From positions 5,024,001 to 5,088,000 of the forward strand of contig OZ252299.1 of the NCBI GenBank assembly GCA_965250285.1: a stretch of 64,000 nucleotides of DNA, in the 5' to 3' direction. The stretch comes from Myxococcota bacterium. GTDB taxonomy: Bacteria > Myxococcota_A > UBA9160 > UBA4427. Shown here piece after piece: positions 8,826 to 60,083 of the stretch. The translations under genes were made by a program, and so were the position numbers. Each line of letters opens with the position of its first letter. The first letter of the stretch is position 1. The notes under the pieces were generated by a model. That model was not told where the DNA came from. It was given only the letters and a program-made list of their open reading frames with translations, and searched no databases.

Positions 8826-11612
8826 TCAACCCACCCGGCCTCGCCGGCGCCGCCGCGCGTCGATCGACACCAGAGTGACGAGGCCCGCCGCGAACAGCGC
8901 GCCGATCGTCGGCTCGGGCAGGTATACCAGGTCGAGCTCGCCCTCGATGTAGCCACCCGAAGACAGCGGTGTGACCGCGCCGCTCAGCGGGTCGACGTGC
9001 ACGATCTGGCCGCCGGTGCAGGCACCGTCGGCGCAATTGCCCGATTCGGCGACCCAGATGTCGCCGCTCGCGGGGTCGACGGTCACGCCGGTCGGCATGT
9101 TCCACGTGCCTCCGTTGTCGAGCGCGGTGGCCGAGCCGTCTGCGGCATCGACGCGATAGATGCCGGGGCCGAGATCGAACTCGCGACCCACCGCGAGGAT
9201 GCCGCCGCCCGGTTCGAGGGCGAGGTCGAGCCACTTTGCCCGCGCGAAGACGCCCCAGTCGAGCGGTGTCGCGATTCGGGTGACGGGGTCGATCCGCATC
9301 ACGCCGCCGCCGAGGAACCCGAGGCCGGTGGTCAGCACGGCGCCGCTCGGCTCGATGGCGAGCGTATCGCCATCGGCGACACCGAGGTTCGGCAGGATCT
9401 CGGGCGTCGGGATCGACATCCAGAGCGTCGTCGTGGTGTCACCGTGCGCATGGGTATAGAGCCCGTCGGCTTCGAGAACGAAGGCGACGTCGTCGTCCCC
9501 GACCTCGACCTGCAGAGACTCGTTCGAGTCGAGTGAACTCGTCAGCACGGTTTGTGTGCCGCTCCCGCCGATCGAAACGAGGCCGATGGGATCCGCAATG
9601 AGGATCCCTGCGCCCCGTCGATCGAGACCCTGCGGCGCCTCGAGCTGCGCGCCCTGGCTGATCAGGGTCTGTACGCCCGATCCCGGATCGACGTGGAAGA
9701 GCGTTCGGCTGGTGCGATCGACGACGTAGAGGCCGCCCCCGAGTACGTCGAAGCGGCGCTCGCTGGCGAACTGCGCATTCGGGCAGTCGGTGTCGGCCGG
9801 ATAGTCGATCTGACCGTCGCCGTCGTTGTCGATGCCGTCCGAGCACTGCGGTGCTTCGATCGGATCGTCAGCGCTCGTGCAAGCCGGGTACTGCTGCGGA
9901 TGATCGATCAGGCCGTCGCCGTCGTTGTCGATGCCGTCCGAGCATTGAGGGGCTTCGGCGAGCTGGTCGGCCGACGTGCAGTCGGCGTCAGCGGGGAAGT
10001 CGATCTGCCCGTCGCCGTCGTTGTCGATCCCGTCGCTGCAGCCGGGCAGCTCGCTCGCATCCCAGGGCGCGCGACACTCGGTGTCGGCGGGATGATCGAG
10101 GGCACCATCATCGTCGTCGTCGAGCCCGTTCGAGCAGGCCGGGTCTTCGCGCACCGAGTTCTCGTCGCGGCAGCCGGGATCGTCGAGGTCGAACAGACCG
10201 TCGCCATCGTTGTCGATCCCGTCTGCGCAGTCGGGTTGCTCGGTCGGGTCATCGGGTGAGCGACAGCCGGCGTCGCCCGCGAAGTCGATCTGTCCGTCGC
10301 CGTCGTTGTCGATGCCGTCGGCACAGTCGAGCGACTCGGACAAGTCGACCGGGCTCGTGCAGCCGTCATCGGCCGGATGATCGGTCGCGCCGTCGGGCTC
10401 GTCGTCGACGCCGTTTCGGCAGGCGGGCGCGATCACGAACGCGACCCATCCCTCCTCGTGACCGGCGGGGTTCACACCCGTCCCGACGACGAAGAAACCG
10501 CCGTCGACCTCGTCCGAGACGCCCGTGGCGGCGGTCAGGATCCAGCCCGTCAGATCGAGTCCATATGCGTTCGTGAGCTCGGTCTTCAGATCGCGCATGC
10601 CGAGGCCCGCATCGAAGATGAATGCACGATCTTCGCCGTCCGCATTGGCGGCGCTTCCGAAGACGAGCCCGCCATCGGCGCTGACCGCGAGAGCGCGACT
10701 GCGAACGACCGGTGCACCCGGTAGTGAGCCCAGCTCGGTCAGCGTGGTGTAGCCGGCGCCGGTCCACGTGACCGCCTGAAGATCGATGGCCACGGTCGTG
10801 CCACCCGGCAGCGTCAGCGTGCTCTTGCTCGAGAAGCCCACGAGGGTCGAGCCATCGGCCGAGACGTCCAGCACCGAGGACGTGCGCGGTGCTGCCGCGG
10901 TGAGCGCGGGCAGCGCAGTCAGGCCCGAGCCGGTCCACACCCAGGCATCCTGACCGTGGTTGCGCTGGTGCGCGCCACCGATCACGCCGCCGTTCGACGA
11001 TGACGCGATGGCCTGGCCGATCTCCTGATCGCCGCTCAGGTTCCCCAGGTCGGAGAGGCCGGTGCCGCCGCCCGGCCAGCGCACGGGGTCGACGCGAAGC
11101 GGCGCCGTCCCACCCCCGCGCCCGACGGCGTAGCCCAGAACCACGAGACCGTCGGTCGACACACCGAGTGCGTCGGTGACGGGATCGCAATCGCTGCACG
11201 ACTGCGCGTTCAGCAGAATGCTCGCTCCGCCCTGATGTCGGAAGCCCCGCTTGACGCCCGAGCCGTCGAGGCTCGAACCGACGACGACCGCGCCATCGCT
11301 CGAGACCGCGCGCGCGACGCTCGGAGCGCTGCCTCCGGGCAGGAAGCCGAGGCCCCCGATGCCGGCGCCGCTCGTCCATGTGAATGCTTCGGTGCCGTTC
11401 GCCCCGTCGCTCTCGCCGACCACCGTTGCGCCGTCGGCCGAGATGTCGTGGGCCGCGCTCGACGTGGCTCCGCCCGGCAGATCGCCCACGCCCTCGAACG
11501 TGGGGGTCTGCGGGTTCGCCATGGCCACACCCGCCGCTAGCGCGCTGGCAACTAACCCTGCAACGAACCCCGTGACGAGCCACGCCACGAAGAAAGCGAC
11601 GAAGCGCGCCAT
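8826..11612 (-). CDS. Large PEP-CTERM surface protein with HAF-like propeller repeats, DxDxDG Cys repeats and a C-terminal propeller-like domain
   Basis: Signal peptide; S-x-A-x-x-VS-x-DG-x-VVG repeats; seven C-x-DG-x-D-x-D-x-DG repeats; C-terminal LPEP + TM + RRRRR. Confidence 0.85.
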   Translation of the reverse strand: MARFVAFFVAWLVTGFVAGLVASALAAGVAMANPQTPTFEGVGDLPGGATSSAAHDISADGATVVGESDGANGTEAFTWTSGAGIGGLGFLPGGSAPSVARAVSSDGAVVVGSSLDGSGVKRGFRHQGGASILLNAQSCSDCDPVTDALGVSTDGLVVLGYAVGRGGGTAPLRVDPVRWPGGGTGLSDLGNLSGDQEIGQAIASSSNGGVIGGAHQRNHGQDAWVWTGSGLTALPALTAAAPRTSSVLDVSADGSTLVGFSSKSTLTLPGGTTVAIDLQAVTWTGAGYTTLTELGSLPGAPVVRSRALAVSADGGLVFGSAANADGEDRAFIFDAGLGMRDLKTELTNAYGLDLTGWILTAATGVSDEVDGGFFVVGTGVNPAGHEEGWVAFVIAPACRNGVDDEPDGATDHPADDGCTSPVDLSESLDCADGIDNDGDGQIDFAGDAGCRSPDDPTEQPDCADGIDNDGDGLFDLDDPGCRDENSVREDPACSNGLDDDDDGALDHPADTECRAPWDASELPGCSDGIDNDGDGQIDFPADADCTSADQLAEAPQCSDGIDNDGDGLIDHPQQYPACTSADDPIEAPQCSDGIDNDGDGQIDYPADTDCPNAQFASERRFDVLGGGLYVVDRTSRTLFHVDPGSGVQTLISQGAQLEAPQGLDRRGAGILIADPIGLVSIGGSGTQTVLTSSLDSNESLQVEVGDDDVAFVLEADGLYTHAHGDTTTTLWMSIPTPEILPNLGVADGDTLAIEPSGAVLTTGLGFLGGGVMRIDPVTRIATPLDWGVFARAKWLDLALEPGGGILAVGREFDLGPGIYRVDAADGSATALDNGGTWNMPTGVTVDPASGDIWVAESGNCADGACTGGQIVHVDPLSGAVTPLSSGGYIEGELDLVYLPEPTIGALFAAGLVTLVSIDARRRRRGRVG
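9757..10424 (-). repeat. Seven intragenic ~32-aa CxDGIDNDGDGxIDxPxDxxC repeats (putative Ca-binding, disulfide-linked)
   Basis: Visible in the translation and as recurring ccgtcgccgtcgttgtcgat in the DNA. Confidence 0.9.
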
Positions 11613-56464: not shown

Positions 56465-57754
56465 TCAGGCCATCCAGCGCTCGACTTCTTCGGGCGCCTT
56501 GGGGATGGCCGTGTTGAGGTTCTCGTGCCCACTCGCGGTGACGACCACATCGTCTTCGATGCGCACGCCGATGCCGCGCAGCCGCTCGGGAGCGTTGTCG
56601 TCATCGACCGGCACGTAGATCCCGGGCTCGACGGTGAACGCCATGCCGGGCTCGAGCGGGCGCGGCTCGTGGTCGCGCCGGTAGAGGCCGACGTCGTGGA
56701 CGTCGAGCCCGAGCCAATGGCTCGTGCCGTGCATGTAGTAGTCGCGATACGACTCGGTCTCGATGATGCCGTCGAGCTCGCCCTCGATCAGCCCGAGCGT
56801 CTTCATGTGCTCGCAGAGTCGGCGCACCGTCGCGTCGTGGATCGCGGGCAGGGTCGAGCCCGGCTTGCACAGGTCGAGCGCGAGCAGCTGGGCGTCGAGG
56901 ACGGCTTCGTACACGTCCCGCGCCGCGCCTTCATAGCGGCCGCCCACGGGATAGGTGCGGGTCACGTCGCTCGCGTAGCCCTGATACTCGACGCCGGCAT
57001 CGATCAGCACGAGGTCGCCGGCCGACAGTGCAGCGTCGTTGCTCACGTAGTGCAGGATCGTCGCGTTCTCGCCGCCGGCCACGATGCTGCCGTACGCGGG
57101 CCCCGACCCTCCAGCGCCGCGAAAGTGCCTGAAGAGCTCGGCCTCGAGCTCGTACTCGAAGCGCCCGGGCTTCGCGATGTGGGCCGCCGCGCGATGCGCC
57201 TTTTCGCTGATCTCGGCCGCGCGTCGCATGAGCTTCAGCTCGTCATCGGCCTTGAAGAGGCGCATCTCATGCAACAGGCCGCGCGGGTCGACCATCTCTT
57301 CGACCGGCGGTGGCGCGCTGCGCGACTGACGTCGTGCGTCGGCCTGGATCTGTACCAGTCGCTCGTCGATGTCGGTGCGTCGACCGAGGCTGTGATAGAG
57401 GCGGTCGACGCCGCGCACGATCTCGGGCAGGCGCTCGATGAAGAGCGCCACGTCGTGCGCCTCGTCGGCGCCATACCGCTCGACGGCGCCTTCGACGCCC
57501 GGGCGGCGTCCCGTCCATGTCTCGGCGGCCTTGTCGCGCGGCTGCACGAAGAGCGTGTACTTCGGCCCGCCGTCGGTGCGAAGCACGGCGATCGCGTCGG
57601 GGTGCTCGAACCCCGTCAGGTACCAGAAGTCGCTGTCCTGTCGGAACGGGAACTCGGTGTCGTTCGAGCGGGTCACGAGCCCCGCGCCGATCACGATCGC
57701 GACGGCGTCGGGCCCCATCGCTTCGAGCAGCCGTGTGCGTCGTTCTTCGAACAT
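56465..57754 (-). CDS. pepP: Xaa-Pro aminopeptidase P
   Basis: [16 protein letters not shown]...[29 protein letters not shown]. Confidence 0.94.
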
Positions 57755-58020: not shown

Positions 58021-58147
58021 TGCCGCCAGAGGCGGCAGTGCTGCCTGAAGTGGCAGGCATGGGTAAGTGTTTGAAATAATGACCGAAAGCGTCTTTGGGG
58101 TCGAATCGAGGTGGGGGTGCCAACGAATGTTGCCGCCGCAGGTGGCA
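58021..58147. promoter_or_regulatory. Putative enhancer (UAS) palindromes flanking an IHF-like site
   Basis: TGCCGCCAGAGGCGGCA (58021-58037) and TGCCGCCGCAGGTGGCA (58131-58147); TAAGTGTTTGAAA (58064-58076) is one mismatch from the IHF consensus. Confidence 0.5.
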
Positions 58148-58235: not shown

Positions 58236-58252
58236 TTGGCACGCGCTCTGCA
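58236..58252 (+). promoter_or_regulatory. Sigma54 (-24/-12) promoter
   Basis: TTGGCACG-CGCT-CTGCA with exact GG-N10-GC spacing, one mismatch from YTGGCACGNNNNTTGCW. Confidence 0.75.
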
Positions 58253-58262
58253 ATACCCCAGA

Positions 58263-58581
58263 CCATAGTCAGTCTGGCCTGAGTGGCCCGGATGTTTAAC
58301 GGGCGCGTTCATCCGGGTCACTCAGTGTCCGGGCCCTGGACTCTCGAAACGAGGCGCTTTCCCCCAGATTCGCACCCCGCCGAACCAGAGCCCGGACGCC
58401 AGGCTGAGCAAGACCTCGAGCGAGCTCGAGTGGCAACGAGACAAGACAAGGCAAGACAAGGCAACGCAACAACAGACGCAACGGTCGCCGCATCCCTGAC
58501 CCGAGCGTCGGCTTCTTCTCCTGGAAGCTCCGACCCGAACGAGATGGCGCCTTCGCACTGACCCCGCGAAGGCGCCTTCTT
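58263..58581 (+). ncRNA. Candidate sigma54-dependent structured non-coding RNA (about 320 nt)
   Basis: Lies between the sigma54 promoter and a terminator, opposite to both flanking genes; nested stems with G-U pairs; CA-rich repeat tract. Confidence 0.65.
58546..58581 (+). terminator. Intrinsic terminator
   Basis: Perfect 11-bp stem GGCGCCTTCGC/GCGAAGGCGCC, 9-nt loop, TTCTT tail. Confidence 0.7.
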
Positions 58582-58652: not shown

Positions 58653-59858
58653 TCAGCGACGACGGCGTCGCGAGGCGGGCTTCTCGTCGACCGGCGGCGC
58701 GGCGGCGCGCGCTTCGACAACGAACTCAGCGACCTCGCCACCGAACTCCTTCGAGAACCAGCGCTTGAGTTCGGGGACGTCCTGAAGATCGCTCGCCTTG
58801 TCGGGGTTCGCCCAGGCGATCGCTTCGAGCGCGGCGTTCGGGCAGAGCACGCCCGGATCGAGGCCCAGGTCTTCGGCCCGACCTGCCCGCCACTCCTTCA
58901 GTTTCGTGAAGAGGCGTTCGGTGCGGCGATCCATGCGCTTGCGCCCCGTTCCGTTCGAGAGCTTGGGGATCGGCCCGTGCGGCTTCTTCACGCCCTTCTG
59001 GACGGCGGTGAGGATGTCGCCGCCCATCCGTCGCACGATCAGCTCGGACACACCCTTGATGCGGGACAGCTCTTCGGCGGCACCGGGCTGCAGCTTTGCG
59101 AGCTCGAGGAGTGTGCGGTTGCCGAGCACCTTGAAGGGCGGCCGGTCGATGTCGCGCGCTCGCTTGTCCCGCATCAGGTAGAGCTCGCGCAAGGCGGCGA
59201 GGCTGGTGGGATCGAGGGTCTTGGCGCCCTTGATCCGCAGGTAGCCGAGCTTGTCGAACTCGCGCTCGGGCCAGCTGCGCTTGGCGAGCGTGTCGAATTC
59301 GGACTGCGCCCAGTCGCGCCGATCCTTGGTTTCGAGCTCCTTCTCCAGCTTCTCGGCGAGCTGGATCAGGTAGACGACGTCGCTGGCCGCATACCAGAGC
59401 TGCTTGTCGGTGAGCGGCCTGCGCGACCAGTCGCTGCGTTGTTCGTCCTTTGGCAGCTTCGTGCCGAAGTGGTGCTCGACGAGCGCGGCGAGGCCGATCG
59501 CGGGATAGCCGAGCAGCTGAGCCGAGATCATGGTGTCGAACACGTTCTTGAACTCGAAGCCGCAGTCGCGCTTCAGCACGAAGATGTCGTACTCGCCGGC
59601 ATGGAAGAGCACCCGCACGCTGGGCGACTTCATCATCTTGCTCAGGGGCTCGAGCTCGGCGGGGCCACCCAGAGCCAGAGGGTCGATGAGCCATGTGCCC
59701 TTGCGCGTGCCGATCTGGACGAGGCAGGTCTTGTCGAAGTAGTGATAGAAGCTGTCGGCCTCGGTATCGACCGCGACGACCTCTTCCTTCACGAGCGCCT
59801 TCGCAAGCGCTTCGAGCGCCGGCTTCTCGGTAATCAGCTCGTAATCAGGCTTGGACAC
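58653..59858 (-). CDS. rnd: Ribonuclease D (DEDDy exonuclease with HRDC domains)
   Basis: AVDTEADS, CLVQI, FHAGEYD, FDTMI, SDWSRRPL...YAASDV, two HRDC-like domains. Confidence 0.92.
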   Translation of the reverse strand: MSKPDYELITEKPALEALAKALVKEEVVAVDTEADSFYHYFDKTCLVQIGTRKGTWLIDPLALGGPAELEPLSKMMKSPSVRVLFHAGEYDIFVLKRDCGFEFKNVFDTMISAQLLGYPAIGLAALVEHHFGTKLPKDEQRSDWSRRPLTDKQLWYAASDVVYLIQLAEKLEKELETKDRRDWAQSEFDTLAKRSWPEREFDKLGYLRIKGAKTLDPTSLAALRELYLMRDKRARDIDRPPFKVLGNRTLLELAKLQPGAAEELSRIKGVSELIVRRMGGDILTAVQKGVKKPHGPIPKLSNGTGRKRMDRRTERLFTKLKEWRAGRAEDLGLDPGVLCPNAALEAIAWANPDKASDLQDVPELKRWFSKEFGGEVAEFVVEARAAAPPVDEKPASRRRRR

Positions 59859-60083
59859 TCGCCTCGACACCCCATGCTCGACGCTCTTCTCGACGCCGAG
59901 CTGCGAGTCCGTGGGCTTCACGCCCGGGAGGGACTCGGAACCATTGCGTGGGGGGAGGCCTTGGGAGCCCGCCGCGTCGGCGACCGGGCCCATTCAATCT
60001 AGCCGAGCGCCACCGCGGACGAAACCGCAGAACCCGCCCGACTCGCCTTGCCGCCCGTCGATCGGCTGGACGAGACTCGGGCC

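Follow-up and report, generated by a model that had tools for sequence, protein, structure and literature searches.

The intergenic region between the pepP and rnd genes of an uncultured myxococcotal bacterium holds a real structured RNA gene that is conserved across the UBA9160 order, in a lineage that has been termed class Vahlivitia (10.64898/2026.07.10.737566). We call the product 3WJ RNA, for three-way-junction sRNA. Family and architecture are both new; the kind of RNA to which they belong, sigma54-driven with C-rich loops, is known. An initial annotation of the window (the whole stretch of DNA that was analysed, 64,000 nt, to which all unprefixed coordinates refer) had proposed at this place an undescribed sigma54-dependent RNA of about 320 nt. 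That it is undescribed is borne out by Rfam scans of the region and of 20 homolog loci, which gave chance matches only. A literature search returned no described small RNA from this uncultured lineage; its coverage stopped short of subscription journals and of the supplements of papers, where large RNA-motif surveys could list 3WJ RNA. The parts of the locus are collected in Table 1.

Table 1. Features of the 3WJ RNA locus, by position in the window
Feature	Position	Strand	Remarks
pepP, aminopeptidase P, divergent neighbour	56465..57754	-	Pfam
Further or one-mismatch enhancer copies	58118-58134, 58021-58037, 58039-58055
Enhancer palindrome TGC-N11-GCA, NtrC-type frame	58131..58147	.	106 bp upstream of the -24 box
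Sigma54 (-24/-12) promoter box	58237..58252	+
3WJ RNA, predicted full transcript	58263..58581	+	Promoter-to-terminator geometry; contig starts at 58264 and 58265
Conserved core, three-way junction	58269..58407	+	Closed by P1 58269-58278/58398-58407; model R1, 115 bits
P2, long hairpin	58279..58325	+	Apical G(GGCG)C tetraloop at 58301-58307
P3 arm, variable in sequence, covarying	58327..58397	+	15/15 pairs changed on both sides
Near-invariant 30-nt C-rich element, P3 tip	58352..58381	+	Predicted seed or recognition site
Strain-variable spacer	58408..58474	+	CTCGAG hairpin 58415-58430; U-free CA-rich tract
Hairpin with CGCAU (anti-start-codon-like) loop	58475..58509	+	Loop 58488-58496
Hairpin with UUCUCCU (anti-Shine-Dalgarno)	58510..58529	+	UUCUCCU at 58516-58522
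Intrinsic-terminator-like 11-bp hairpin, short U tail	58546..58581	+	Stem 58546-58556/58566-58576
rnd, RNase D, convergent with 3WJ RNA	58653..59918	-	Pfam: 3'-5' exonuclease and two HRDC domains

Genomic context

The start of rnd may lie as far out as 59993, and its product scores 240 bits against TIGR01388, under the cut-off of 299. Among the 29 loci that were found from the RNA sequence alone, rnd adjoins 3WJ RNA in convergent orientation in 27. On the other side, 55 of 84 loci, as retrieved, include pepP, and in relatives another gene often intervenes between it and 3WJ RNA; what stands upstream across the loci is pepP, a lipoprotein-like gene without a Pfam match, or the gene of a TonB receptor. 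The pepP-rnd-iclR block is syntenic as a whole.

The lipoprotein-like gene codes for a product of approximately 380 amino acids and lies, divergently oriented, just 5' of the 3WJ RNA promoter (L020:29-1234 and 13 similar loci). It has no Pfam match in the relatives and was absent from a search of the present genome; as a candidate activator of 3WJ RNA it was rejected, both for want of a Pfam match and because its atlas neighbours are beta-propeller-like. The tRNA-Val and tRNA-Asp calls made by ARAGORN in the window (92-95 nt; 56636-56730, which is inside pepP, and 9341-9432) are probably false.

Fold and anatomy

The predicted structure of the whole 319 nt has a free energy of -139.3 kcal/mol (z -4.19, with none of 100 shuffles as good), and that of a 150-nt core has z -6.56 (none of 200 shuffles as good). 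The opposite strand of the core folds just as well (z -6.54), and folding alone thus does not assign the strand. The assignment to the plus strand rests on the promoter, on the terminators and on the excess of G-U over A-C cells in the family alignment (251 versus 102).

Every helix that the initial annotation had named was recovered: the closing stem (10 of 10 positions paired, one G-U), the long hairpin (16 of 16, one G-U), the second arm (58327-58334/58390-58397; eight of eight, no G-U), the CTCGAG hairpin (six of six) and the 11-bp terminator stem. The G-U pairs that had been taken as a sign of structure at the RNA level are few in this copy and carry that weight in the family alignment. 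A hairpin placed at 58507-58534 exists but folds as 58510-58529, and the earlier description lacked both the hairpin at 58475-58509 and the 30-nt C-rich element, the most conserved part of the molecule.

The conserved unit is not the full 320 nt but a three-way junction of about 145 nt with its terminator. Its stems are free to vary (in P2, all 15 pairs have changed on both sides), and only the GGCG tetraloop and the 30-nt element are nearly fixed in sequence. In a 78-row alignment, the letters of the tetraloop are identical in every one of the 75 rows that have them. The 30-nt element consists of a short GG-C-GC/GC-A-CC stem with a C.A mismatch and of a UUUCCCCCA loop; the mismatch is present in 77 of the 78 rows, the core columns of the C-run are kept in 75-78 rows, and the C-run has a mean unpaired probability of 0.68 in predictions. 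The P3 tip may adopt an alternative pairing register, or P2 and P3 may form a pseudoknot; the positions concerned hardly vary. P2 has been deleted, with the 30-nt element retained, in three loci (L027, L087, L137). These belong to a small-genome genus, in which the RNA is a minimal version of about 100 nt. Two rnd loci of one assembly (L042:4394-4543 and L043:4454-4613) keep the promoter and P2 and have lost the C-rich element. As P2 and the element can each be lost without the other, no single tertiary fold is required.

In 75 of 80 homologs, a terminator hairpin with a U tract stands downstream of the core, the median spacing being 39 nt, so that the usual length of the gene is about 190 nt. 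The length of about 320 nt holds for the present strain, where it is a local, lineage-specific extension; the CTCGAG hairpin and the CA tract (58408-58474) are not common to the homologs. Short motifs nevertheless recur ahead of the terminator. CGCAU is found there in 20 of the 75 homologs (shuffle mean 4.3, maximum 10), with an unpaired probability of at least 0.83 in 17 of the 20 occurrences, and UUCUCCY in seven (shuffle mean 0.25, maximum 3). In this copy, CGCAU and UUCUCCU stand in adjacent loops, in the order suited to pairing with a start codon and AGGAG. A second recurring 3' hairpin motif, GAAGGUC, precedes the terminator in six of the 75 homologs (shuffle mean 0.3) and stands in for CGCAU in some lineages (L007, L010, L023, L076, L101, L104). 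The terminator U tail of this copy is weak, and a simple terminator scanner made no call.

Distribution and covariation

Searching at the DNA level gave matches in 35 of 61 genomes, some of which were chance matches to repeats. Model R1 was built from 61 distinct cores, taken from the loci of that search and from 80 rnd loci. In a sequence-only alignment (n = 61), both partners have changed in 39 of 45 pairs and 80.4% of cells are paired; covariation scores 0.403 there, as against 0.196 after shuffling and at most 0.175 for slid partners. The score rises to 0.558 in a model-fitted alignment of 82 distinct rows, which leans towards the structure and includes two false matches. The covariation among relatives' loci that the initial annotation had named as a check is present.

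Within the UBA9160 order, R1 matches 17 of the 23 genomes sampled; in the class's other family it matches none of four, and among 123 further genomes of the phylum it matches two, weakly (26-27 bits). Both weak matches were rejected, one (L141) being like an ORF with a signal peptide and the other (L140) being without the 30-nt element. The present genome has one copy. Of the 80 rnd loci, 62 are matched, two of them through the P2 half only, and 18 are not (three of these are incomplete). Five genomes behind R1-negative rnd loci were searched whole and gave nothing real, and some lineages thus seem to have lost the gene.

Promoter, enhancer and candidate activator

The sigma54 dependence that had been proposed for this RNA is supported by a conserved box, which is present in its strict form in 74 of 80 homologs and in a relaxed form in all 80, 23-40 nt ahead of the model start; none of 2887 control windows has a strict box. 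The gene for sigma54, rpoN, was found in 57 of 61 genomes. Farther upstream (median 104 bp), the palindrome TGC-N11-GCA occurs exactly in 47 of the 80 homologs (shuffle mean 2.05, maximum 7) and with at most one mismatch in 69; among other palindrome spacings, from N4 to N16, none exceeds seven of the 80. The site at 58131-58147 ranks top among the 108 intergenic sigma54-like boxes of this genome. IHF-like sites are present in 41 of the 80 homologs (shuffle mean 16, maximum 24), and none was found upstream of this copy.

TGC-N11-GCA has been described as a putative NtrC motif (PMC10746234). In the present genome, amt-glnK, nirB and glnII have this frame ahead of their sigma54 boxes, and six of the 19 strict intergenic sigma54 boxes carry it, including those of an ECF sigma gene and of a surface-protein gene. 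One region (G000:1449115-1453116) codes in tandem for three near-identical predicted surface proteins of 340 amino acids, which end in a membrane anchor and an RRR tail at the C terminus; every one of the three has a separate sigma54 box, and the enhancer of the first is very like that of 3WJ RNA. An NtrB/NtrC-like pair is encoded elsewhere in the genome (G000:3340426-3343166, L278) and is conserved in the order; the NtrC-like protein reaches 519 bits against TIGR01818, below the cut-off of 558.6. The palindrome also stands before ntrB (L278, L281-L310); 19 of 29 loci have the frame, most of them with an A/T-rich centre. The inner positions differ between the two sets: they are C and G in 34 and 37 of the 47 exact 3WJ RNA enhancers, as against A and T in 16 and 17 of the 19 autoregulatory ntrB sites. 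NtrC-like genes and rpoN are found, too, in genera in which 3WJ RNA was not. On these sequence comparisons, NtrC and some other enhancer-binding protein appear about equally probable as the activator.

Environmental RNA

A transcript is indicated by environmental metatranscriptomes, among which 20 RNA runs hold 7-12% of the words of a 1101-base query; four runs, from four studies, were examined. The contigs of two runs extend from 58264/58265 to 58406/58412, and those of the other two from 58277/58279 to 58412/58415, with further cover at 58465-58539. In these four runs, no contig covers 57700-58263 or 58540-58800, stretches that include the ends of pepP and rnd; the contigs are confined to 3WJ RNA, in keeping with the transcript that had been predicted. 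Near-identical contigs from two runs (X5, X6) skip 58413/58416-58464, and one run has an extra contig of 182 nt that is apparently another family member. This is the pattern that would be expected of a discrete, abundant RNA, it being noted that assembled contigs are silent on strand, ends, level and processing.

Relationship to Pxr and other known RNAs

The closest parallel is Pxr, an RNA of Myxococcus and relatives that blocks development, on which several studies have appeared (PMC5684412, PMC10217877, PMC5568312, PMC11928866) and whose origin has been placed in the Cystobacterineae (PMC5684412, PMC8538405). Both RNAs have a sigma54 promoter and an intrinsic terminator, they come from related hosts, and in both a GG-bulge-stem is capped by a UUCCCCC loop. 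Pxr is processed by RNase D, which was reported as a first for an sRNA (PMC10217877), and rnd is the fixed neighbour of 3WJ RNA. The differences concern architecture and control. Whereas Pxr consists of three serial stem-loops, 3WJ RNA is a covarying junction with two long arms and an extra GGCG hairpin; the enhancer of Pxr is a 14-bp TTKCA-N4-TGMAA site and that of 3WJ RNA the 17-bp TGC-N11-GCA; and there are no pxrK/pxrR or pxrA neighbours. No close match to the DNA-binding domain of PxrR was found in this genome. The Pxr family model, RF01812, gave no match at E ≤ 10 in the region or genome and none at E ≤ 1 in 20 homolog loci; as a positive control it scored 91-129 bits (gathering threshold 80) on 11 true Pxr loci that had been recovered with a published probe. 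A profile-HMM comparison with Pxr gave no match either. Pairwise alignment makes the resemblance of the loop motif visible and does not reach significance, being equalled by 32 to 127 of 300 shuffles, depending on the scoring. Thus 3WJ RNA is not a member of the Pxr family but has similar parts. RF01812 applied to 151 genomes of the phylum and the Pxr probe applied to 401 gave no matches; no control rang in these searches, and they do not show that Pxr is absent.

A pattern of sigma54 box and C-run was matched in 27 of 337 genomes outside the order, with six control matches in 401. By eye, about 10 of the 27 look like hairpin-plus-terminator RNAs without an Rfam match (L242, L243, L246, L249, L250, L251, L252, L253, L255 and L263, from other families of the phylum): an intergenic sigma54 box is followed by a hairpin with a loop of 6-10 C and then by a U-tract terminator. 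L249 resembles stem-loop 1 of Pxr, bulge included, and L242 is flanked by an RNase E/G gene and rho. The genes beside these hairpins are not PxrR-like, and two further matches, in coding-like sequence and without a sigma54 box, were rejected. Since the pattern was built from both RNAs, these units point to a possible wider class but do not prove descent.

Parallels also come from more distant bacteria. NfeR1/alpha-r14 of rhizobia is likewise an RNA with pyrimidine-rich anti-Shine-Dalgarno loops on variable stems, acts independently of Hfq and has a TGC-N11-GCA site in its promoter (PMC10746234). That promoter, however, is of the sigma70 type, repressed by NtrC and activated by LsrB, and three identical CCUCCUCCC loops silence ntrB (PMC10746234), whereas the promoter of 3WJ RNA is of the sigma54 type and its loops are not identical; with neither an Rfam match nor repeated CCUCCUCCC loops, 3WJ RNA was not found to belong to that family. 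NrsZ of Pseudomonas aeruginosa is a processed, nitrogen-dependent sRNA that is induced by NtrB/C (PMC4253122), and by analogy a similar logic may apply to 3WJ RNA. The frame and position of the enhancer fit this, and its inner bases are unlike the ntrB sites of the order; NrsZ is from another phylum, and Rfam scans gave no match in sequence or structure.

As had been judged by eye, 3WJ RNA is not tmRNA, SRP RNA or 6S RNA. Copies of the first two are elsewhere in the genome (tmRNA at genome positions 2605432-2605799; SRP RNA at G000:666618-666717, 61.9 bits), and 6S RNA (RF00013) has no match at 3WJ RNA. Two relatives (G045, G050) have above-threshold 6S RNA elsewhere in addition to 3WJ RNA. 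No above-threshold 6S was found in this genome or in 24 genomes of the same family, four genomes of the other families of the order do match, and no obvious 6S could be seen by eye after zapA (L213). A sponge of the CsrB, CrcZ or Y RNA type is not supported: the cognate proteins were not found in this genome and the CA tract is not conserved.

Proposed mechanism and targets

Searches with positive controls found no Hfq, CsrA or Ro60 (TROVE) in this genome, which is 95% complete; CsrA is present in 21 of the 61 genomes searched. With these proteins not found, SRP RNA and tmRNA encoded elsewhere and 6S RNA co-occurring in two relatives, what remains is base pairing or a protein partner. We hold it somewhat more probable than otherwise that 3WJ RNA is an Hfq-independent base-pairing sRNA, and possibly one that is nitrogen-regulated and RNase D-trimmed; it would, we infer, regulate in trans. 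Precedents for base pairing are Pxr (PMC5684412, PMC10217877) and NfeR1 (PMC10746234). In the scheme that we propose, an enhancer-binding protein, for which NtrC under nitrogen limitation is the leading candidate, would act from the palindrome about 105 bp upstream to turn on sigma54 transcription. The stable P1-P3 scaffold would then display the UUUCCCCCA loop, with no need of Hfq, and the loop would pair with G-rich translation-initiation regions and block ribosome-binding sites; in some lineages, the CGCAU and UUCUCCU loops might in addition pair with start codons and AGGAG sites. Finally, trimming of the 3' end may fall to the RNase D encoded alongside, in the way that the M. xanthus enzyme acts on Pxr; the basis of this suggestion is the linkage to rnd together with that precedent.

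The complement of the loop, TGGGGGRR, is 4.3-fold enriched around gene starts (26 of 5152 versus six of 5047; starts from a simple gene caller, 5153 genes), an enrichment of G-runs that is to be expected for any Shine-Dalgarno-like sequence. Ahead of the gene starts of this genome, no 5-mer is as common as AGGAG, and in one locus (L139) the loop has changed to CCCCUCCUC, which is a direct anti-Shine-Dalgarno. The longest genomic complement of the 30-nt element measures 14 nt and directly abuts the start codon of a gene for an outer-membrane beta-barrel protein (leader at G000:5584701-5584715). This site recurs in none of the 29 homologous loci examined; what relatives have of the gene are paralogs at 30-38%. 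Among non-RNA matches to a 12-nt complement in the 61 genomes, no gene was common to the 30 loci inspected. No conserved target was found; nitrogen genes did not rank high as loop targets, and no pairing with ntrB was predicted. Moreover, 30 near-invariant nucleotides with a fixed C.A mismatch exceed the needs of a seed, which counts against base pairing, as does the C-run's mean unpaired probability of only 0.68.

Alternative explanations

In one alternative, 3WJ RNA would bind protein, as a decoy or scaffold, with its GGCG tetraloop and 30-nt element as recognition surfaces held in place by the junction; the partner would possibly be the neighbouring RNase D or another RNA-binding protein. 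The fixity of the 30 nt, C.A mismatch included (77 of 78 rows), among freely varying stems, the tight linkage to rnd and the failure to find a conserved mRNA target all agree with it, as does the possibility of a different pairing, of the P2 loop with the GCACCC stretch, once more with a C.A. Yet CsrA, Hfq and Ro60 were not found here, nor was a partner protein identified; the element persists unaltered in copies without P2, two copies have P2 without the element, and the 3' loops look like antisense sequences. We regard this explanation as possible but unlikely. An action in cis on rnd, by convergent transcription or by read-through antisense that tunes RNase D, would account for the convergent arrangement in 27 of 29 loci. 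However, 3WJ RNA carries a terminator of its own, 72 nt short of the rnd stop, the RNA contigs do not extend to rnd, no notable match to the conserved loops was seen among complements at the start of rnd, and the synteny of the whole pepP-rnd-iclR block means that the linkage may be passive, all of which makes such an action very improbable. That the region codes instead for the 92-aa ORF at 58283-58561, with the structure incidental, can practically be dismissed. The frame is open, as are ORFs of at least 60 aa in 40 of 80 homologs, a count that is uninformative in GC-rich DNA; but the ORF has no Pfam match, the stems show compensatory changes, and the spacing from motif to motif falls in all three frames (25, 21 and 15 of 61), such frame-breaking indels being contrary to coding. 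The initial annotation had named conserved translation of this ORF as evidence that would tell against an RNA gene, and none was seen.

A further proposal concerns descent only, and is compatible with base pairing: 3WJ RNA may be a distant homolog of Pxr, derived from an ancestral sigma54 C-loop sRNA by the gain of P2, of a longer arm and of a new enhancer. When aligned to stem-loop 1 of Pxr, homologs of the consensus type agree with it in 19 of 21 positions on either side of a 7-nt insertion, and the present copy in 18 of 20; both RNAs are driven by sigma54 and tied to RNase D (PMC10217877); and the intergenic units outside the order, with L249 so close to Pxr stem-loop 1, could bridge the two. 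Against this, those bridging matches were selected by a pattern made from both RNAs, RF01812 has no match here while recognizing true Pxr loci, R1 in turn finds nothing at Pxr, and the pairwise resemblance is matched by shuffles. The pairing register differs as well, PxrR-type sites are present at 11 of 11 Pxr loci and at one of 80 of ours, the 17-bp site is at none of the 11 Pxr loci, and no activator gene adjoins 3WJ RNA. Descent from a common ancestor thus appears doubtful.

Implications

An uncultured lineage thereby gains a well-supported RNA family with a promoter, an enhancer, covariation and support from environmental RNA. The 30-nt element and the enhancer are defined handles on the regulation of translation in bacteria that lack Hfq. 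As a second sigma54 C-loop RNA is fixed beside rnd, the age and generality of the pairing between sRNA and RNase D become testable. A more far-reaching conjecture, which we rate as distinctly unlikely, is that 3WJ RNA is an elaborated branch of an ancient, phylum-wide class of sigma54 C-loop RNAs that also gave rise to Pxr: it would have been rewired to NtrC and kept by its maturing RNase D, and its modular loops (C-run, anti-start and anti-Shine-Dalgarno) would form a chaperone-free brake on translation in nutrient limitation. If that were true, the starvation checkpoint known from Pxr would be older than fruiting-body development.
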